Source of the DNA: Candidatus Hadarchaeales archaeon
Lineage (GTDB): Archaea > Hadarchaeota > Hadarchaeia > Hadarchaeales > WYZ-LMO6
Length of the DNA: 64,000 nucleotides
Direction: 5' to 3'
NCBI GenBank assembly: GCA_038736355.1
Contig: JAVYML010000001.1
Span: 180,908-244,907, forward strand
Shown: positions 36,513-60,769 of the stretch, piece by piece
Layout: the number at the start of each line of letters is the position of its first letter
Position numbering within the stretch: the stretch's first letter is position 1
Notes under the pieces: model-generated
The model's database searches: none
What the model was told of the DNA's origin: nothing
Seen by the model: the letters and a program-made list of their open reading frames with translations, nothing else
Program-made: the position numbers and the translations under genes

Positions 36513-36638
36513 GGTGGTTGGCGGCGTCCTGGAGTTCCCGTCCGCTTCCGCAGGACAGTACAGTCCAGATCGCTGGCGGGCTTAACTTCCGGGATCGAAC
36601 GAGACCGGGTGTTTCCCCGCCGCTATGGCCGCCAACCA
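36513..36638 (-). rRNA. rrf: 5S ribosomal RNA
   Basis: Minus strand GGTTGGCGGCCATAGCGGCGGGGAAACACCCGGTCTCGTTCGATCCCGGAAGTTAAGCCCGCCAGCG...GGACGCCGCCAACC; universal 5S loop-C/helix-III motif CCCGGAAGTTAAGCC and a complementary helix I. Confidence 0.85.
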
Positions 36639-38169: not shown

Positions 38170-38260
38170 TGGTCCCGCGGGGGAGATTTGAACTCCCGAC
38201 TTGCCGGTCTCGGCCTTGGGTCTACAGCCGGCCGCTCTAACCAGGCTGAGCTACCGCGGG
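38170..38260 (-). tRNA. tRNA-Tyr(GUA) with 13-nt canonical (37/38) intron; C1:G72; CCA encoded
   Basis: Minus strand CCCGCGG-TA-GCTC-AGCCTGGTTA-GAGC-G-GCCGG-CTGTAG[ACCCAAGGCCGAG]A-CCGGC-AAGTC-GGGAG-TTCAAAT-CTCCC-CCGCGGG-A-CCA. The C1:G72 pair is the archaeal/eukaryal Tyr identity element. Confidence 0.8.
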
Positions 38261-44647: not shown

Positions 44648-47600
44648 TTGTTTGTGCAAGCAAGAATTAAAAATGATAAGCTGAGCATCCTTTTTGCATT
44701 ACTTTTAATATCGCTTCTCTCCCTCTCTTCTCTGTTCTTGACTCTGTCCTCTGTGAGAACGGTTTCCGCATCTCCGGACCCACATGCTCCGATATACATA
44801 GAGGGGGATGGAAATTTCAAACCGGCAAACGGCGTTCGCAGTGGTTCTGGAACCAAAACCGATCCCTACATCATCGAGAACTGGGAAATCGATGCTTCCA
44901 ACGCCCACGGGATCCACATTAAAAACACCACCGCGTATTTCGTGATCAGAAATGTGCTGGTTGAGAACGGGAAGACTACTTACCATGGGATTTTTCTGGA
45001 AAATGTGGTCAACGGCAGGATCGAAAACGTGGTGAGCCGGAAAAACTCTAGAGGCATCTTTCTCTCTTACTCCAACAACATCCGCCTCTCAACCAACACC
45101 GTGGAGAACAACAAATACGGCATCTATCTCTACTGCTCCTCCAGAAACGAACTCTGGAACAATATCGTGAGGTACAACGAAAATGGCAACATCTATCTCC
45201 TCTCCTCCAACAACAACACCTTCTTCTCCCCCAACACCGCGGGAAACGGCAGATACGGCATCTACCTCCACTCCTCCGACAACAACACCTTCCTCGGCAG
45301 CACCGTGGAGAACAACAGATACGGCATCTATCTCTACCACTCCTCCAGAAACGAACTCTTGAACAATATCGTGAGGTACAACGAAAATGGCAACATCTAC
45401 CTCATCTCCTCCAACAACAACACCTTCTCCCACAACACGGTGAGGAATGGCGGGAGCATTTATCTCGACTTCTCCGACAACAACACCTTCTCAACCAATA
45501 CCGTGGAGAACACCTTCATAGGTATCCACCTCCACTCCTCCGACAACAACACCTTCTCAACCAATACCGTGGAGAACAACACCTACGGCATCTATCTAGA
45601 CAATTCCGGCAACAACACCCTCGCTAATAACACCGTGAAAAACAACCGGGGACATGGCATCCGTCTCGACTCCTCCGACAACAACATCCTCACCAACAAC
45701 ACCGTGGAGAACAGCGAGGAGGGCATCTACTTCCGCTCCTCCGACAACAACACCCTCACCAACAACACCATGAAAAACAACTGGTCGGAGGGCATCTATC
45801 TATACAACTCCGACAACAACACCCTCACCAACAACACCGTGGGAAACAACGGGTCGAAGGGAATCTATCTCAACTCCTCCGACAACAACACCTTCTCAAC
45901 CAATACCGTGGAGAACAACGCCCGTGGCATTTATCTCTATTACTCCTACAGAAACACCCTCTCAAACAACAAGGTGGAGAATAACTCTACAGGTATCTAT
46001 CTCGACTCCTCTGACAACAACACCCTCACCAACAACACCGTGGGAAACAACGGATCGGAGGGCATCTACCTCCGCTCCTCCGACAACAATACCCTCACCA
46101 ACAACAGGGTGGAGAACAACTTTATGGGTGTCTACCTCGTAGGCTCCTCTAATATCACAATGGACAACAACGTAATGAGGTCCAATCGCTGTAACTTCCT
46201 GGTATTCGGTGATAAGCTCTCGCACTTCATCCACGACATCGACAATACTAACACCGTGAACGGGAAGCCAGTCCTCTACTTAACCGGGACCGAGAACAAC
46301 CTCGTGATAAATCAGGATAACCGGGTAGGCTGGCTGGGTGTGGTAAATTCCAACAACATACAGGTGGAGAACCTCGTGGTCGAGACTGTTATGCTTGCGT
46401 TCACGCACAACACCAGGGTAGAGAATGTGATCGTCGAGAACTCATTAGTTGGCATCTATCTCTTCTCCTCCTCCAACAACTTCCTCTTAAATAACACCGT
46501 GGGGAACAACATGGAGGAAGGCATCCATCTCCACTCCTCCCACAACAACATCCTCTCAAACAACATCGTGAGGAACAACCAGTTGGGAATTGGAGTTGAG
46601 AATGGCAATCTGTTGGTTATTTCCCACAACGTTATTGAGAACAACTTGATCCGGGATATCGAATTTGATGGAAAAAATTCGGTTTTTGAGGCCAACGTCT
46701 ATACAACAGCAAGAGGCATTCCCCATATACATTCAGTTTGTGTTACAGACATCACGCAGACATCCGCAACGATAACCTGGGCTACCGATAAGAACTCAAC
46801 AAGTGTTGTCGAATACGGCCCAACAGCGGCATACGGATACACGGCCACGGACGGTGTGACGACCAACCATCGGGTGGACCTCTCCAACCTTTCACCCGGA
46901 ACCTATCACTTCCGCGTCCTTTCAACCGACAGCGAAAACAACCTCGAGATATCGGGGGACTTCACCTTCACGACGATTTCCCTACCAACATCCATAACGC
47001 TCGAACCATCCTCCTTCTCCCTGGTCTCAGGAGGTTCCAGGGAGATAACGGCCATCCTGAGGGACAACGGGGGAAACCCACTTTCCGGAAAGACGATATC
47101 GTGGAGCACAACCGCTGGAACAATAACCCAGACAAGCATGACGGACAATCTTGGGAGGGCAACCGCAACCTTCACGGCTCCCGTCGTCACGCAAATGGAG
47201 AATGTGACGATTACGGCAACCTTCGCGGGGGATGCCGGCTACGGGGGGAGTCAGGAAAATGCCTTATGTACGGTCTCTCCCGTTCCCTCCACCCCAACAA
47301 CCTTGACGGTTTCACCGTCAAGTTTCACCGTCAGAGTTGGCGGAAGGATAACCCTAACCGCAATCCTCTTGGATAACGCTGGAAATCCGCTCCCAGGAAA
47401 GCAGATAGTTTGGAGCACGACTTCCGGTTCGATTGAACCTATGATAGGTCTCACGGACAACCACGGGAGGATGGAGGTAACGTTTTTCGCACCATCGGTC
47501 AGCGGGTCCGTTGAAATCGGAGTTATTTTCCAGGGAGATTCAGTGCATGCCAGAAGCCAGGCGATAGGTGTGGGTACCGTGTCCCAGCCTCGACCGGGGA

Positions 47601-47680
47601 CCAGGCCATGGATTCCGGTAGCTGTGATCGTCATCATAGTCCTCCCCACTGTTTTCTTTTTCCTCAGGAGAAAGAGGTAA
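44648..47680 (+). CDS. large secreted/membrane-anchored surface protein: signal peptide, about 20 parallel beta-helix (PbH1) repeats rich in N-x-S/T sequons, FN3 domain, two Big-like Ig domains, C-terminal TM anchor + RRKR
   Basis: 1010 aa; N-terminus MFVQARIKNDKLSILFALLLISLLSL...; 22-aa repeats SSDNNTFSTNTVENNxxGIYLxx; FN3 SATITWATDKNSTSVVEYGPT; Ig-like LTVSPSSFTVRVGGRITLTAILLDNAGNPLPGKQIVWSTT; C-terminus PRPGTRPWIPVAVIVIIVLPTVFFFLRRKR. Lower GC than its neighbours; TTG/GTG start. Confidence 0.85.
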   Translation: MFVQARIKNDKLSILFALLLISLLSLSSLFLTLSSVRTVSASPDPHAPIYIEGDGNFKPANGVRSGSGTKTDPYIIENWEIDASNAHGIHIKNTTAYFVIRNVLVENGKTTYHGIFLENVVNGRIENVVSRKNSRGIFLSYSNNIRLSTNTVENNKYGIYLYCSSRNELWNNIVRYNENGNIYLLSSNNNTFFSPNTAGNGRYGIYLHSSDNNTFLGSTVENNRYGIYLYHSSRNELLNNIVRYNENGNIYLISSNNNTFSHNTVRNGGSIYLDFSDNNTFSTNTVENTFIGIHLHSSDNNTFSTNTVENNTYGIYLDNSGNNTLANNTVKNNRGHGIRLDSSDNNILTNNTVENSEEGIYFRSSDNNTLTNNTMKNNWSEGIYLYNSDNNTLTNNTVGNNGSKGIYLNSSDNNTFSTNTVENNARGIYLYYSYRNTLSNNKVENNSTGIYLDSSDNNTLTNNTVGNNGSEGIYLRSSDNNTLTNNRVENNFMGVYLVGSSNITMDNNVMRSNRCNFLVFGDKLSHFIHDIDNTNTVNGKPVLYLTGTENNLVINQDNRVGWLGVVNSNNIQVENLVVETVMLAFTHNTRVENVIVENSLVGIYLFSSSNNFLLNNTVGNNMEEGIHLHSSHNNILSNNIVRNNQLGIGVENGNLLVISHNVIENNLIRDIEFDGKNSVFEANVYTTARGIPHIHSVCVTDITQTSATITWATDKNSTSVVEYGPTAAYGYTATDGVTTNHRVDLSNLSPGTYHFRVLSTDSENNLEISGDFTFTTISLPTSITLEPSSFSLVSGGSREITAILRDNGGNPLSGKTISWSTTAGTITQTSMTDNLGRATATFTAPVVTQMENVTITATFAGDAGYGGSQENALCTVSPVPSTPTTLTVSPSSFTVRVGGRITLTAILLDNAGNPLPGKQIVWSTTSGSIEPMIGLTDNHGRMEVTFFAPSVSGSVEIGVIFQGDSVHARSQAIGVGTVSQPRPGTRPWIPVAVIVIIVLPTVFFFLRRKR
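45060..46150 (+). repeat. in-frame tandem 66-nt coding repeats (beta-helix rungs), several copies near-identical at the DNA level
   Basis: Recurrent ctcctccgacaacaacaccttctcaaccaataccgtggagaacaac and ...ccctcaccaacaacaccgtgg... units. Confidence 0.75.
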
Positions 47681-55951: not shown

Positions 55952-57133
55952 CTAGACGGGAATAAATAACTTGTTTGACTCTATTTCCTCCTCCTTTGTG
56001 GGGGGAGGGAAGTCCTTGGGAAGGTCCTTTCCCTGCCCTATCCCTATCGTGTTGCCTATTCCGGCCACTATCACCCAATCCCCAGGCTTGGTCCTCTCCC
56101 TCACGGCCCTCTTCACCCTCTCCACCGTCTCATCCGCGGCCTTGGCAATCCTGCTGTTCATCTGGGTGATGGCCTCCCTGAAGGATTCCTTGATCACGAT
56201 CGCATCCAGCGGGATGCGGTGCTTCACGGCCACCTGTTCTATCTTGTACTTTTCGGTGGGAGGTCCCCCTATGGCTGCACCCACCCCCTCGATCACCTCC
56301 CCGCTCTTCTCCCCCTCTAGCTTCAGAGCAGCATCCACCATGATGATCCTAGCTATCTTCCTCTTCTTGACCAGCTTGCTTATGAGCTCCCCGGGCTTAC
56401 CCACCCTCCCACCGGGTCCTTTGGCCTTCACCACCAATAGCTTTCTTCCCTCGAACTCCACCTCACCCACCACCGTATCCTCCACCAGCTCCTTCACCTT
56501 GGCCCCATCGAAGAGTTTGGCCGCCACCAGGGCTCCCACCCCGTCCCCGATGGGCTTTCCCTCGGAAAACACCTTGGTGGCATCCCTGTAGGCCTTCGCG
56601 TACTCCTTGAAGATGGGCATATACATCTGGATGGCCATCGCCAACTGATAGCTCCTCGTCTTTTCGGCAAGGAGGAGGAAGTGCCTGACTATCCTGTAGA
56701 GGTAGTGGGTGGCCATCGCCCCCTCTATCACCATCTCCAGCGTGGCCGCCTCCTCGGGATCGGCCTTGGGAGCGAAACGGGCCACCGCATCCTCGAACCT
56801 TTTCTTCCTAACATCCAAGATGTGATCGAGTCTCTGGATGACCCCCACGGGATCCTCGGATACGGGCTCTATCGCGAAGAACTCCAGGAAGTTTCCCAGT
56901 TCCTCCTCCAAATCCCTCTTGGTCCTTCCATGCTTCTGGAGGGAAAGAAGGGCTATCCTCTTGGTCTCCTTTGCCCACTCCTCCAGCTCCTTCACCGATT
57001 TCCTCACCTTGGAGAGGAGGAGGCTGGATTGCATGGACATGAGCTGGGGAGTCAGATAGCTCCACAGGACCCCGAAGATGAAGAACATCAACATCCAGAG
57101 CAGCAGGCTATCCACTCCCGCATCCCAAGGCAT
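55952..57133 (-). CDS. conserved archaeal membrane-anchored protein (DUF1512-like?)
   Basis: Likely start MPWDAGVDSLLLWMLMFFIFGVLW (one N-terminal TM), which avoids overlap with nrdJ; the track extends to 57211. Family call is tentative. Confidence 0.45.
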   Translation of the reverse strand: MPWDAGVDSLLLWMLMFFIFGVLWSYLTPQLMSMQSSLLLSKVRKSVKELEEWAKETKRIALLSLQKHGRTKRDLEEELGNFLEFFAIEPVSEDPVGVIQRLDHILDVRKKRFEDAVARFAPKADPEEAATLEMVIEGAMATHYLYRIVRHFLLLAEKTRSYQLAMAIQMYMPIFKEYAKAYRDATKVFSEGKPIGDGVGALVAAKLFDGAKVKELVEDTVVGEVEFEGRKLLVVKAKGPGGRVGKPGELISKLVKKRKIARIIMVDAALKLEGEKSGEVIEGVGAAIGGPPTEKYKIEQVAVKHRIPLDAIVIKESFREAITQMNSRIAKAADETVERVKRAVRERTKPGDWVIVAGIGNTIGIGQGKDLPKDFPPPTKEEEIESNKLFIPV

Positions 57134-57167
57134 CTTCTCTTTTTCTCCTTCCACCCCTAAAACCTTG

Positions 57168-60100
57168 CTAGCCGGGGAAAGGACAGGTCCTCGTGGGGCA
57201 TCCCCCCGCATACTCCGCTTCGGCCGCCACGAACTTCGCCTCCCTTCCTATGTAAAGCACCTGCTCCGGTTTGCTCCCATAGCGGAAAATCGTTACCCCC
57301 TTGCACTTGAGTCTCCAAGCTAGCTCGTAAACCCTTTCCACCTCCTCCACGGTGGCTTCAGAAGGAAGGTTGACGGTCTTCGAAACAGCGTTGTCGGTGT
57401 ATTTCTGGAAGGCGGCCTGCATCCTCACATGCCACTCGGGGGGGATGTCCAAGGCAGTGACAAAGATCCTCCTGAGGTCCTCCGGAACCCCTTCCACCCC
57501 GCGGAGGGATCCGGTCTTGGCTATTTCTTCGAGAAGCTTCGCACTGTAAAAACCCCTTTCCTTGGCCATGAGCTCGAAGAGGGGATGGATTTCGAAGAGC
57601 TTCCTTCCCCCCAGCACCTTCCTAATGAAAGAGAGGGCGAAGATGGGTTCTATCCCGGAAGAACATCCGGCGATGATGCTTATGCTCCCCGTCGGGGCTA
57701 TGGTGGTCACGGTGGCGTTCCGCATGGCCCCATACCTATCCTTCCAGATGCTCCTTTCGAAGTTGGGGAAGGAACCGCGCTTTTCGGCCAATTCCACCGA
57801 CTTCTTGCGTGCTTCTTCCGAGATGAAGCGCATCAATTTCTCCGCCAGCCTCAGTGCCTCCTCCGAATTGTAGGGGATACCCAATTTGATCAGCATATCG
57901 GCAAAACCCATGACCCCCAATCCTATCTTCCTGTTGGCCTTGGTGATTTCCTCTATCTCCCTGAGCGGGTACCTGTTGGCATCTATGACGTTGTCCAGGA
58001 AGTGAACGGCGCTTCTCACCGTCTTTCCCAGTTTCTCCCAGTTCACTTCTTTCCCCTCCACCATCCTCGAAAGGTTGATGGAGCCCAGGTTGCAGGATTC
58101 GTAGGGCAGGAGGGGCTGTTCCCCACAGTTATGCACACAGAAGCCGTTGGCATCGAAGAGGTTCACACCCGGGACCCTAACATCGAAGACCTCTTCTCGA
58201 CCCTTGAAGACAAGGCTTTCTACGGTGGCCAGGAAGCGTCCCCCCTCCATCCCCCCCTTGTAAAGGCTGAGAAGACGTTCCAAGCGTTCCCTTTTCTTCG
58301 GGTCTCCAAAGCCTATTTTCCGGGCGAAAACGAGGAGATCTTCCCCGGAAATAACCAGCTCGCGCACCCTTCCTTTGCGGATTTTCGAATATATCCCGAA
58401 CCTGAGGAGAATGCGCTGTACTGCCCTCAAAATCTCCAAGTTGCTCTGCACCAATCTCACACTAACACCCTTCCGTTTACTTCCCCGAACCGAACCATTG
58501 ACATCGAACAGTCCCCTAACCAAGCCCCTACAGAAGGCCGAAGAGGCCTTTTCCATCGGAACGGTGATCCTCCTTTCTCCTGGCCTCAGCCCCATTTCCC
58601 TCGCAAGTTTCTCCAAGGAATCTGATCCGTTGGGCAGTTTCTTCATACGGGCGTGGGTAAGGTCCTCCACCCTTCCCTCCTTCCCGTCGCCCAAGAAGAG
58701 ACCCACCAAATAGCCTTCCTCGAAGGTGAATTTTCCCTCCCAAGAAGTCACAACCCGGTTGCGGTTCAAAAGTACCTTATCCCCCCTCTCCAGTTTTCCC
58801 GCCGGTACCCACTCCATTTCCCTCGCGCATCCCGTCCTTCCCTTGACCCTGAGAACGGGATGATCCCATGTAAGACAAACCTCGAACCCTTCCCTCGTAA
58901 TCAGCCTGTAAACCGGCCTCACTCCAGTCCTGAAGAATCCCTCCTCCGTAGTTTCCCACTTCCCCCCATTCGCCACGACCACGAACTTTTTCCCGATGAG
59001 GTCCCTTACCTGTCTAGGTCCCTCTTCTGTCATGACCCAAGTGTAGACGGGCACACATGGGTTGGTAGCCTCTATCCTACCCACTCCAGGCGTGGGGTTG
59101 TGGCGGTTGATTTCGTCTATGAAGATCACTCCGGGATCTCCGCTCGCCCAGGCGGACTCTGCCATCAACTTCCAAACGCTCCTAGCCCTCAGTTTCTCCA
59201 CCCTCTCCCCGTTCCTGGGATTGATGAGCCAGTATTCCCCGTCCTCTTCCACCTTTTCCATGAACTCGTCCGTGACGGAGACGGAGAGGTTGAAGTTCTG
59301 TAGAAAGGTGTAATCCCTCTTACAGGTGATGAACTCCAGGATATCTGGATGGTCCACCCTAAGAATCCCCATCATGGCACCCCTTCTCCTCCCTCCCGCC
59401 TTGATGACCTCAGTTGTGATGTCGAAGATCCTCATGAAGCTTACCGGTCCCGAGGCCACACCCATCGTCGATTTCACCAGGTCCCCTTTGGGTCTGAGCC
59501 TGGAGAAGTCGAACCCCACACCCCCACCGCTCTTCTCTATGATGGCCATGTTCCTCACGGCCGTGAGAATACTTTCGAGGGAGTCTTCCACAGGAAGGAC
59601 GAAACAGGCGGAGAGCTGCCCCATTTCTGTCCCTGCGTTGAAGAGGGTAGGGGAATTGGGAAGGAACTCCAAACGCGCCATCATTCCGTAAAAGATTCGC
59701 TCGCTCTCCTCAGGATCCTCACCGTAGTTTCTATCTACCCCAGCTACGGCCTTCGCCACCCTTGAAAACATCTGCTGGGGTGTCTCGACGACTCTTCCCG
59801 TCTCATCCCTCAAAAGGTATCTACTGCGGAGGACCTCCAGGGCATTGACCGTAAGCTTGGGCTCGGGAATCCCGAGGCTCTGTCTCAACCTCCTTATCTC
59901 CTCTTTCTTCTCCCTGTACGATTGATATTCCTCCGCCACCCTTTCATAACCCCTCCTCCTCAGAACCTCCACAACCGCATCTTGGGCATCCTCCACGGAG
60001 GGTATCCTTTCCCTGAACCTCTCCTCCAGCATCCTTACCACCTCCCTGGTAACCTCCTCTGCTTTTTCCCCATCCTCCTGCTCCACGGCTATGAAGGCCC

Positions 60101-60191
60101 TATGAACGGCGTCCCTGATTTTGCTGGGATCGAAATCTACCAGCCTTCCGTCCCTCTTTTTTATCTTCTGAATTGGCATATCCAAAATCAT
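57168..60191 (-). CDS. nrdJ: ribonucleotide reductase, class II (adenosylcobalamin-dependent, NrdJ-like) with N-terminal ATP-cone and one intein
   Basis: 1007 aa; ATP-cone [16 protein letters not shown]; catalytic ATNP^[intein]^[19 protein letters not shown]; C-terminal Cys pair. Confidence 0.9.
58128..59057 (-). mobile_element. intein (310 aa) with LAGLIDADG homing-endonuclease domain inserted in the RNR active-site motif
   Basis: Begins Cys (NP|CVPVYT...), ends ...FCVHN|CGEQ; the C at +1 is the RNR cysteine of the NPCGEQ motif. LAGLIDADG blocks [13 protein letters not shown] and [12 protein letters not shown]. Boundary codons were verified on the sequence. Confidence 0.85.
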
Positions 60192-60246
60192 TCGTTCAGG
60201 TAACCCTAAAAACTGATGTACAGCTTTTTTTTTGTCCCCCTTCCAG

Positions 60247-60769
60247 GTTGAAAGGGTTGGGAAAGGTTTACCTCTTCACGGGAACGGGGCCGGGGAAAAC
60301 CACGAGTGCCCTGGGGCTGGCCCTGAGGGCGGTAGGCCAGGGGAAGAAGGTCGTGATCGTCCAGTTCCTCAAATGGTGGAAGAACACAGGGGAGTATAAG
60401 ATAAGGGAGAGGCTTTCCCCCCACTATGAGATCTACCAATTCGGAAGGAAAGGTTGGATGAAGAAGGAAGAGCTTGGTGAAGAGGACAGAGAACTTGTGA
60501 GGAAGGGACTGGAGTTCGCAGAAAGAATCGCCAAGGAAAAAAAGCCCGATCTCCTCATCCTCGATGAGCTGAACTTAGTGGCTGGATGGAAACTGGTGGG
60601 GATGGAAGAAATACTCAAGCTCCTGGATAACCTGCCCAAGAAAACGGATGTGGTCCTCACGGGAAGGTACGCACCCAAAGGGCTGAGGGAGAAGGCGGAT
60701 GTGGTGGTGGAAATAAGGGAAATCAAAATCCCCGAGCCCTTCCAAGCAAAGAAGGGTATCCAGTACTGA
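60247..60769 (+). CDS. cobA: cob(I)yrinic acid a,c-diamide / cob(I)alamin adenosyltransferase (CobA/CobO family)
   Basis: P-loop FTGTGPGKTTSALGLALRAVGQG, VVIVQFLK. The track start at 60173 is a TTG that would overlap nrdJ; the probable start is the TTG at 60247 (LKGLGKVY). Confidence 0.7.

Follow-up and report, generated by a model that had tools for sequence, protein, structure and literature searches.

A class 1 intein with a probably degenerating LAGLIDADG endonuclease in the active-site motif of an archaeal nrdJ

The nrdJ gene in the 64-kb window (the whole stretch of DNA that was analysed, 64,000 nucleotides) encodes a class II, adenosylcobalamin-dependent ribonucleotide reductase (RNR) whose active-site NPCGEQ motif is split by an in-frame insert. 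The insert is a genuine class 1 intein, of the form Cys1...His-Asn/Cys+1. It is very probably a splicing-competent intein with a degenerating endonuclease, which belongs to the allelic family at the RNR radical cysteine and, within the homing cycle, has reached the stage of degeneration. The features of the locus are listed in Table 1.

Table 1. Features of the nrdJ gene and its intein, in the direction of transcription where features do not nest.
Feature	Position	Strand	Evidence
Host gene nrdJ, class II adenosylcobalamin-dependent RNR precursor, 1007 aa	57168..60191	-	ORF; PF03477, PF00317, PF02867, TIGR02504; 1xje match
N-extein, aa 1-378, ends ...GRIEATNP	59058..60191	-	
Intein, 310 aa, Cys1 to Asn310, host aa 379-688, in frame	58128..59057	-	
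HINT N-terminal part, intein aa 1-105, block A (CVPVYT) and block B	58743..59057	-	beta-strands at 2-97 (AF2 model); DnaB and GyrA mini-intein matches
Block B, T63-W-D-H66	58860-58871	-	
Degenerate LAGLIDADG endonuclease remnant, intein aa 106-275	58233..58742	-	PF14528; three deletions; AF2 model; dN/dS 0.64
LAGLIDADG motif 1, LVGLFLGDG, aa 117-125; acidic Asp124 kept (58686-58688)	58683..58709	-	
Deletion 1 junction, GDG^KEGR^VEDL, ~25 aa missing; half-domain 1 beta1-beta2 hairpin in relative P0001	58659..58691	-	
Deletion 2 junction, NGSD^SLEK, ~18 aa missing; half-domain 1 beta3-beta4 in P0001	58608..58631	-	
LAGLIDADG motif 2, VRGLFDVNG, aa 180-188; Asn187 (AAT, 58497-58499) replaces catalytic Asp	58494..58520	-	
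Deletion 3 junction, RKGR^VREL, ~22 aa missing; two inner strands of half-domain 2 extended sheet in P0001	58356..58379	-	
HINT C-terminal part, intein aa 276-310, block F (VFDVRVPG) and block G with His309-Asn310	58128..58232	-	TIGR01443; 4o1r alignment; AF2 model
C-extein, starts CGEQPLL; Cys+1 at 58125-58127	57168..58127	-	alignment to T. maritima NrdJ

The host gene and the insertion site

The host protein contains ATP-cone, all-alpha and barrel domains (PF03477, PF00317 and PF02867), and a profile search with the NrdJ equivalog model TIGR02504 gave a score of 727 bits against a cut-off of 399.95. It matches the structure of T. maritima NrdJ (1xje) with an E-value of 3.7e-133. The passing of this curated model, together with the presence of the catalytic NPCGE loop, identifies it as a class II RNR. 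Analysis at the codon level placed the junctions at IEATNP/CVPVYT and GFCVHN/CGEQPLL, with Cys1 encoded by TGT at 59055-59057, the terminal Asn by AAC at 58128-58130, and Cys+1 by TGT at 58125-58127. A preliminary description, made from the sequence, had reported an intein splitting NPCGEQ of a B12-dependent RNR at 58128..59057, with the junctions ATNP/CVPVYT and GFCVHN/CGEQPLL; both the junctions and the coordinates proved exact to the codon, and the host identification is borne out by TIGR02504.

Removal of the insert restores TNPCGEQ, with GGTAGGATAGAGGCTACCAACCCA and TGTGGGGAACAGCCCCTCCTGCCC on the two sides of the intein-less junction, and yields a spliced NrdJ of 697 aa that aligns without gaps to T. 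maritima NrdJ. NPCGEQ flanks the insertion and the termini are canonical (Cys1, His-Asn and Cys+1); neither an insertion outside NPCGE nor a non-canonical terminal residue was found. A genome scan revealed TNPCGEQ to be uninterrupted in 79 of 80 related loci, a count in which intein-free alleles are over-represented, as the scan puts contiguous matches first. The intein-free allele that the preliminary description had suggested looking for is present in the 12 closest NrdJ relatives (L001-L012, 73-80% amino acid identity), all with the uninterrupted motif.

In an alignment to T. maritima NrdJ (1xje), Cys+1 falls on C322, which we regard as the thiyl-radical cysteine. The position immediately before this cysteine is the most frequent site of contiguous inteins in RNRs (PMC2677866), which documents the earlier statement that the intein occupies a classic position at a conserved catalytic site, and makes the finding an ordinary one. 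RNRs are among the most intein-rich hosts; one survey (PMC4760082) counted 211 of their inteins in bacteria and 43 in archaea. The exact insertion sites of PI-PfuI and PI-PfuII were not recovered from the literature searched, nor was the InBase letter name of the present site, whose identity therefore rests on the description in PMC2677866 and on the NF006207 alignment detailed below.

A conserved corrinoid adenosyltransferase gene adjoins nrdJ. No additional intein was found in the eight large ORFs of the window, and searches with Rfam and ARAGORN found no RNA features at the locus. Two plus-strand ORFs run antisense to the intein (57429..58625 and 58653..59303); they gave no Pfam matches, and were dismissed as mechanical ORFs. 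The GC content is 54.4% for the intein and 55.2% for the extein, with GC3 of 0.65 and 0.72, respectively; the compositional evidence for recent transfer of the intein is weak.

The splicing domain

All of the class 1 splice residues are present (Cys1, the TxxH of block B, His309-Asn310 and Cys+1), and the block B column is conserved as LTxxH among the relatives. The C-terminal intein model TIGR01443 (intein_Cterm) scored 17.6 bits, above its cut-off of 15.6, while PF14890 (Pfam Intein_splicing, 33.1 bits, just under its gathering threshold of 35.8) and the N-terminal intein model TIGR01445 (20.7 against 24.5) fell below theirs, the match being split by the nested domain. The sub-threshold scores are compensated by the homologues of the insert, since a database search returned 74, with E-values down to 1e-83, all within RNR genes. 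Wherever the junction was visible among the 74, it read NP/CV..DTW or FDANG...HN/CGE. NF006207, a curated model for Pyrococcus-type intein-bearing RNRs, aligned contiguously over the intein/C-extein junction.

An AF2 model of the intein was obtained with a pLDDT of 92.4 and a pTM of 0.91. The best Foldseek matches were the TliVMA intein (7qsu, E-value 1e-14), PI-SceI, PI-PfuI and PhoVMA, and matches with a Foldseek probability of 1.00 were found to the mini-inteins NpuDnaB (4o1r), Mxe GyrA (1am2) and gp41-1 (6qaz), as well as to the Hedgehog Hint domain (1at0), in keeping with a HINT fold. Taken together, the profile, homologue and structure matches of the insert lie well beyond chance expectation.

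In the proposed pathway, the nrdJ precursor would be translated with the 310-aa insert, and the unspliced reductase, its NPCGE active-site loop being interrupted, would be non-functional. Excision by the HINT domain (aa 1-105 and 276-310) would then follow the standard four steps: Cys1 would undergo an N-S acyl shift, trans-thioesterification to Cys+1 would come next, Asn310 would cyclise, and after an S-N shift ...TNP-CGEQ..., and hence the active enzyme, would be regenerated.

The endonuclease remnant

Mini-inteins without an endonuclease between the HINT halves are typically about 130-200 aa in length. The nrdJ intein, in contrast, still holds a folded LAGLIDADG remnant of ~170 aa, which rules out a mini-intein, and this remnant is matched by PF14528 (Pfam LAGLIDADG_3) with 63.9 bits and an E-value of 1.7e-17. 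Nor is the intein full-length, as the preliminary description had called it: with 310 aa against 361-377 aa for complete relatives, it is ~50-65 aa shorter, having lost ~25, 18 and 22 residues relative to the allelic family at three points. These deletions were called from the family distribution and AF2 models rather than from a reconstructed ancestor.

The earlier statement that both LAGLIDADG blocks are present holds for the helices, which lie at 112-122 and 173-187 in the AF2 model, with the motifs at aa 117-125 and 180-188, but not for the catalytic residues. Only the first motif ends in an acidic residue, Asp124, while the second carries Asn187 at position 8, where 62 of 65 relatives have Asp. 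Asn at this position also occurs in three other family members, so that by itself it is no proof of inactivity.

The predicted structures point to a more extensive loss. The alpha-beta-beta-alpha-beta-beta-alpha core of each LAGLIDADG half was not found in the nrdJ intein, whose model has no strands between the helices at 112-122 and 173-187 and a truncated sheet in half-domain 2. A modelled full-length relative, P0001, has both sheets, and the segments that are gapped in the nrdJ intein form DNA-contacting beta-hairpins there. The closest relatives of the C-terminal half, P0026 (58%) and P0023 (52%), keep the hairpin and the Asp. The family-conserved segment Y(K/R)RxLNRERF is also altered in the nrdJ intein.

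Selection on the intein and its host

A metagenome scan for decay intermediates returned a sole close relative, the sister-strain locus L084, in which all three deletions and Asn187 are already present, so the scan gave no order for the lesions. Beyond these, L084 has undergone two more in-frame deletions within the endonuclease part, and it conserves the block A sequence CVPVYT. Two contigs break off at codon 67 of the intein. Comparison of nrdJ between the two strains gave dN/dS values of 0.087 for the extein (697 codons), 0.22 for HINT and 0.64 for the endonuclease remnant, values that derive from one sequence pair (~5% nucleotide divergence) with small counts, 31 substitutions in the case of the remnant. 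The difference between endonuclease and extein is significant by Fisher's test (p = 5e-5), and that between endonuclease and HINT has the expected direction but is not significant (p = 0.14). With the strain pair, the relaxation of the endonuclease (0.64) can be gauged relative to HINT (0.22) and to the host protein (0.09). The value of 0.64 lies below 1, so some constraint is left on the remnant, perhaps for folding.

The strong constraint on the extein implies a working reductase, which in turn implies splicing, and we infer from these sequence data that the nrdJ intein is splicing-competent. The endonuclease is predicted to be inactive, both from the sequence and from the models. In the history that we propose, a nested LAGLIDADG homing endonuclease would formerly have allowed the element to invade empty nrdJ alleles. 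Decay would then have removed the DNA-binding beta-sheet surface of half-domain 1, part of the sheet of half-domain 2 and, from the second active site, the Asp that binds metal, with relaxation of constraint. Given the lost sheets, the lost Asp and the relaxed constraint, the element is most likely immobile, a vertically inherited passenger, although the remnant, with its retained Asp124, may be capable of single-strand nicking.

Alternative explanations

The remnant could have been kept for a residual or new role, as a splicing scaffold (HINT-HEN mutualism), a nickase or a DNA-binding module. Such a role would explain why reduction to a mini-intein is incomplete, and is in line with the retention of Asp124, with the preservation of the reading frame through five independent indels and with a dN/dS below 1. 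The remnant is also predicted to fold confidently, its blocks being mostly above pLDDT 85 with only aa 121-150 at ~73, and inteins whose HINT depends on an HEN scaffold have been discussed (PMC8966425). Against this, a dN/dS of 0.64 from 31 substitutions is indistinguishable from near-neutrality, the frame would be preserved whatever the role, as any frameshift would cost the cell the essential C-extein, and the remnant shows no sign of any DNA-binding surface. We therefore regard a retained role as unlikely, though with some chance of being right.

A broader proposal, that the crippled remnant and the cysteine-rich junction (Cys1, Cys307 and the radical Cys+1) together represent something beyond mere decay, be it a conditional switch, scaffold-dependent splicing, or residual nicking or DNA binding, is in our view very unlikely. 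If true, a thermophilic archaeon would have its ribonucleotide reductase activation gated by the intein according to redox or temperature, or the intein would retain a nicking or DNA-binding activity. The switch taken on its own, in which redox or temperature would control splicing, a disulfide between Cys1 and Cys+1 or at Cys307 being one conceivable means, and the RNR would be released only under suitable conditions, has a slim chance of being correct. The +1 nucleophile is the radical cysteine of the enzyme, the intein has extra cysteines at 61, 77, 176 and 307, with Cys307 only three residues from the C-terminal junction, and conditional splicing has been discussed for other replication-related inteins (PMC4760082). 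The sequence, however, carries no specific sign of regulation, the same enzyme operates intein-free in closely related archaea, and Cys307 is common to only some of the relatives.

That the intein is currently mobile by means of an active, double-strand-cutting homing endonuclease is extremely improbable, and the potential activity suggested in the preliminary description is not supported. Both LAGLIDADG helices are recognisable, PF14528 is matched, Asp124 is intact in motif 1, and intein-free targets with a conserved junction, matching at 33-39 of 48 nt, exist in related archaea. We rejected this reading in view of Asn187 at the second catalytic position, the predicted loss of all four beta-strands of half-domain 1 and half of the half-domain 2 sheet, the altered Y(K/R)RxLNRERF segment, and the dN/dS of 0.64 (0.09 for the host) with the extra indels in L084; PhoVMA provides a precedent, in which loss of the catalytic Asp abolishes cleavage (PMC8966425).

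A pseudogene reading, in which the intein has lost its ability to splice, as might be taken from a block A (CVPVYT) departing from the family consensus CVTADT and from the Pfam and TIGR N-terminal intein models below their cut-offs, is almost certainly wrong and was rejected, since the 1007-codon ORF is intact, every catalytic splice residue is present, comparison of the 697 extein codons with a strain that has ~5% nucleotide divergence and the same block A gives a dN/dS of 0.087, and the adjacent corrinoid adenosyltransferase gene is conserved.

Comparison with known inteins

The preferred reading, a splicing-competent intein with a degenerating endonuclease, makes the element one of a known kind, in a textbook state of the homing cycle, and adds little that is new. 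The locus captures the degeneration stage cleanly, as it occurs in nature. For annotation, it should be treated as one intein-containing nrdJ gene whose endonuclease activity is not to be assumed. With its compact size of 310 aa, its native Pro(-1) and Cys(+1) and a host archaeon that is presumably thermophilic, the intein is of possible interest for protein engineering.

We take the allelic class I and class II RNR inteins located directly N-terminal to the thiyl-radical cysteine to be the InBase 'RIR1' inteins at that site. These allelic inteins, including the second intein of the Pyrococcus-type NrdJ (NF006207), share with the nrdJ intein the insertion point (NP/C...HN/CGE), the architecture of HINT with a nested LAGLIDADG domain, the CV..DTW and FDANG..HN ends, and a full-length identity of up to 43% (E-value 1e-83). 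In contrast to them, the nrdJ intein is 50-65 aa shorter, has neither the three beta-hairpin segments nor the catalytic Asp of the second motif, and shows a divergent block A, with PVY in place of TAD.

The PhoVMA intein (PDB 7qst, VMA-b site; Beyer and Iwai 2022, PMC8966425; Foldseek E-value 1.4e-11) resembles the nrdJ intein in coming from an archaeal thermophile, in having kept its splicing residues while losing endonuclease acids, in its partial truncation and in being interpreted as a degeneration stage of homing. PhoVMA lacks the catalytic Asp residues, has a truncated block E and is inactive in vitro, and was rescued by grafted active-site residues (PMC8966425). Its host and site differ, as it resides in the V-ATPase A subunit, and it has lost the acids of both motifs while keeping the HEN architecture, whereas the nrdJ intein keeps one acid and has whole beta-sheets deleted.

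The active enzymes PI-PfuI (Pfu RIR1-1, 1dq3), PI-SceI (1vde, 1lws) and TliVMA (7qsu) have the bipartite fold in common with the nrdJ intein, with E-values of 1e-12 to 1e-14 and TMq of 0.59-0.67, and PI-PfuI likewise occurs in an archaeal class II RNR. Identity is only 12-15%, and the three differ in having 366-454 aa, halves in which the alpha-beta-beta-alpha-beta-beta-alpha arrangement is complete, additional regions for DNA recognition and a pair of catalytic acids. For the natural split inteins NrdJ-1 and NrdA-2, which come from ocean metagenomes (Dassa et al. 2009, PMC2677866), the host is again an RNR catalytic subunit, and the insertion lies at the thiyl-radical cysteine or one residue away from it; these mini-inteins are split and splice in trans, and their endonuclease genes are free-standing, whereas the nrdJ intein is contiguous and carries its endonuclease remnant in frame.

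An intein in the radical loop of NrdJ

The nrdJ product has Pfam matches to the ATP-cone, the RNR all-alpha domain and the RNR barrel, and its TIGR02504 score of 727 bits exceeds the cut-off of 399.95 set for this NrdJ equivalog model. The barrel match is broken up by an insert (aa 379-688 of NrdJ) with the N-side junction IEATNP/CVPVYT and the C-side junction GFCVHN/CGEQPLL, and at codon level its limits agree exactly with those proposed in the preliminary description. In silico excision gave a 697-aa NrdJ that aligned without gaps to Thermotoga maritima NrdJ (1xje, E 3.7e-133). In this alignment Cys+1 coincides with C322, which from established RNR biochemistry we take to be the thiyl-radical cysteine, equivalent to C439 in the N437-P-C439-x-E441 loop of E. 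coli NrdA, and the insert indeed splits the conserved NPCGEQ catalytic motif, as first proposed.

Coordinates of nrdJ, its intein and other features of the window
Feature	Coordinates	Strand	Length	Basis
nrdJ ORF	57168..60191	minus	1007 codons	ORF call
Intein	58128..59057	minus	310 aa	codon-level junctions
Cys1 codon	59055-59057	minus		junction reading
Asn187 codon (AAT)	58497-58499			
Asn310 codon	58128-58130	minus		junction reading
Cys+1 codon	58125-58127	minus		junction reading
DUF1512 gene	55952..57211	minus		mechanical ORF
Adenosyltransferase gene	60173..60769	plus		PF02572, E 4e-47
tRNA	38173..38260	minus	88 nt	Rfam, 56.6 bits
5S rRNA gene	36516..36636	minus		98 bits
Beta-helix protein	44648..47680	plus	1010 aa	

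The insert alone matches LAGLIDADG_3 (Pfam, 63.9 bits, E 1.7e-17), scores above the cut-off of the TIGR intein C-terminal model and reaches 33.1 bits with the Pfam intein splicing domain, slightly below the gathering score of 35.8. The solved DnaB and GyrA mini-inteins and PI-PfuI also match it by sequence. An AlphaFold2 model built from 47 aligned sequences was predicted with high confidence (pLDDT 92.4, pTM 0.91), and its top Foldseek matches in the PDB were the intein-endonucleases TliVMA (7qsu, E 1e-14), PI-SceI, PI-PfuI and PhoVMA, followed by mini-inteins and the Hedgehog Hint domain. The splice residues are complete, comprising Cys1, block B T63-x-x-H66, block F VFDVRVPG, block G His309-Asn310 and Cys+1. 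The insert is thus a real, correctly delimited intein.

RNR genes host all 74 database relatives of the intein, and every relative that includes a junction carries NP/CV..DTW or FDANG...HN/CGE. NF006207, a curated model of Pyrococcus-type intein-bearing RNR, aligns continuously through the junction of intein and C-extein. These observations agree with the position just N-terminal to the thiyl-radical Cys that is the most frequent for contiguous RNR inteins (Dassa et al., PMC2677866). Few host proteins carry as many inteins as RNR, for which one survey (PMC4760082) counted 211 in bacteria and 43 in archaea. The present intein joins a known allelic family at the RNR position where inteins are most common.

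Lesions in the endonuclease domain

The preliminary description considered the intein full-length and its endonuclease potentially active, neither of which is supported. Complete relatives at the same RNR site have 361-377 aa, and alignment with them revealed three gaps, all within the endonuclease domain: about 25 aa directly behind the first LAGLIDADG helix (GDG^KEGR^VEDL), about 18 aa behind PNGSD and about 22 aa behind KIRKGR. The gaps were mapped residue by residue onto a predicted structure of P0001, the closest full-length relative (pLDDT 87.6), in which each half has the canonical alpha-beta-beta-alpha-beta-beta-alpha order. Gaps 1 and 2 correspond to beta1-beta2 and beta3-beta4 of half-domain 1, and gap 3 to the two inner strands of the extended sheet of half-domain 2. 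The beta-sheets of LAGLIDADG enzymes form the DNA-binding saddle; between the LAGLIDADG helices (112-122 and 173-187), the model of the present intein contains short helices and zero beta-strands. Since P0026 (58%) and P0023 (52%), which are most closely related to the C-terminal half, keep the hairpin, the gaps are most parsimoniously read as deletions in this lineage. In addition, position 8 of motif 2 (VRGLFDVNG), an Asp in 62 of the 65 relatives showing the motif, is Asn187, and the conserved Y(K/R)RxLNRERF segment is replaced by a different ten-residue stretch, while Asp124 of motif 1 is kept.

Distribution and selection

A genome scan with the spliced extein as query, covering one genome per GTDB species, returned 80 loci, and the TNPC(G/A/S)E motif is unbroken in 79 of them; the ranking prefers contiguous matches, so this count shows that empty alleles exist, not their frequency. 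Such intein-free alleles, a comparison suggested at the outset, include the 12 closest NrdJ loci (73-80% aa identity), from MAGs that carry the label Bathyarchaeia or Bathyarchaeota and, in several cases, a hot-spring-type isolate name. The identical protein is also present on a 59.7-kb contig of SRR27730027, and the same intein occurs in a sister strain with ~95% nucleotide identity (JGI Ga0105162/Ga0105163 and an NCBI record labelled 'Hadesarchaea archaeon'). Relatives thus carry the intein sporadically, yet members of this shallow lineage share it.

L084, a full-length copy from the sister strain, has the three deletions and Asn187 as well, plus two further in-frame losses at intein positions 135-136 and 207, which likewise affect the endonuclease part. 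For this single sequence pair, Nei-Gojobori dN/dS was 0.087 for the exteins (697 codons; 22 nonsynonymous and 66 synonymous changes), 0.22 for the HINT domain (140 codons; 7.8 and 10.2) and 0.64 for the endonuclease remnant (167 codons; 21 and 10). The endonuclease part is close to neutral; its contrast with the exteins is significant (Fisher p = 5e-5), and that with HINT is not in this one pair (p = 0.14). Both exteins are under strong purifying selection, which indicates that the reductase is in use, and we infer that the intein must splice.

Two JGI sister-strain contigs, Ga0209394_1013086 and Ga0105163_1016395, have 3' ends at the same intein nucleotide, after codon 67 (...LTWDHP), which could reflect downstream strain heterogeneity (different intein variants) or re-assembly of the same data.

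Proposed splicing and fate of the element

The NrdJ precursor would be inactive because its NPCGE loop is split. HINT would then run the standard class-1 reaction, in which an N-S shift at Cys1 is followed by trans-thioesterification to Cys+1, cyclisation of Asn310 and an S-N shift, restoring the TNP-CGEQ loop and the radical cysteine. The endonuclease would have no means to bind or cut an empty allele, so that the element would now be vertically inherited, and nuclease activity has presumably been lost. The remnant may retain a residual nicking or scaffold role, given the surviving Asp124, an omega below 1 and the confident fold of the remnant in the predicted model. It is conceivable that splicing acts as a redox- or temperature-gated switch, with the radical cysteine at +1 and Cys307 three residues away from the junction, but nothing specific supports this and close relatives cope intein-free. 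A still active endonuclease is very unlikely in view of the three deletions, Asn187 and the PhoVMA precedent. That nrdJ is a pseudogene is contradicted by its intact ORF and the low extein omega. The favoured reading is that of an intein caught during endonuclease decay.

Other features of the window

Downstream of nrdJ, the DUF1512 ORF overlaps its 3' end by 44 nt; a later start in the public call (393 aa) removes this overlap. The divergent neighbour encodes a CobA/CobO/BtuR-type ATP:corrinoid adenosyltransferase, a pairing also found in both JGI sister-strain contigs, and plausibly supplies the adenosylcobalamin cofactor to NrdJ. Elsewhere, the tRNA match, spanning more than its 71-position model, is probably an intron-containing archaeal tRNA; ARAGORN found zero tRNAs across the whole window. 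The 5S rRNA gene stands alone, with no 16S or 23S rRNA gene within the 64 kb. A protein with repeated right-handed beta-helix/NosD, purple-acid-phosphatase-N and Big_1/invasin Ig-like domains is probably secreted or at the surface.

Comparison with decay in other inteins

The endonuclease has also decayed independently elsewhere in the RNR-intein family. The half-2 hairpin missing here is missing from P0032 as well, large stretches have been deleted inside P0034 (Syntropharchaeia), and P0070 and P0074 are strongly eroded; Asn also occupies the motif-2 catalytic position in P0035, P0053 and P0074. P0024 from Streptomyces virginiae (388 aa, 109-kb contig) carries the annotation of a free-standing LAGLIDADG homing endonuclease and is homologous to an entire intein: it begins with CVVGSTWV, and Pfam recognises both HINT and LAGLIDADG in it. 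The called protein has no RNR domains and ends in ...FDGNGIVLQT, not His-Asn. It could be a gene fragment that was called wrongly, or an intein-derived ORF that does not splice. Among characterized systems, the PhoVMA intein is likewise partly truncated, is without catalytic Asp residues and is inactive in vitro; its activity was rescued by grafted active-site residues, and it was read as a degeneration stage of the homing cycle (Beyer and Iwai, PMC8966425).
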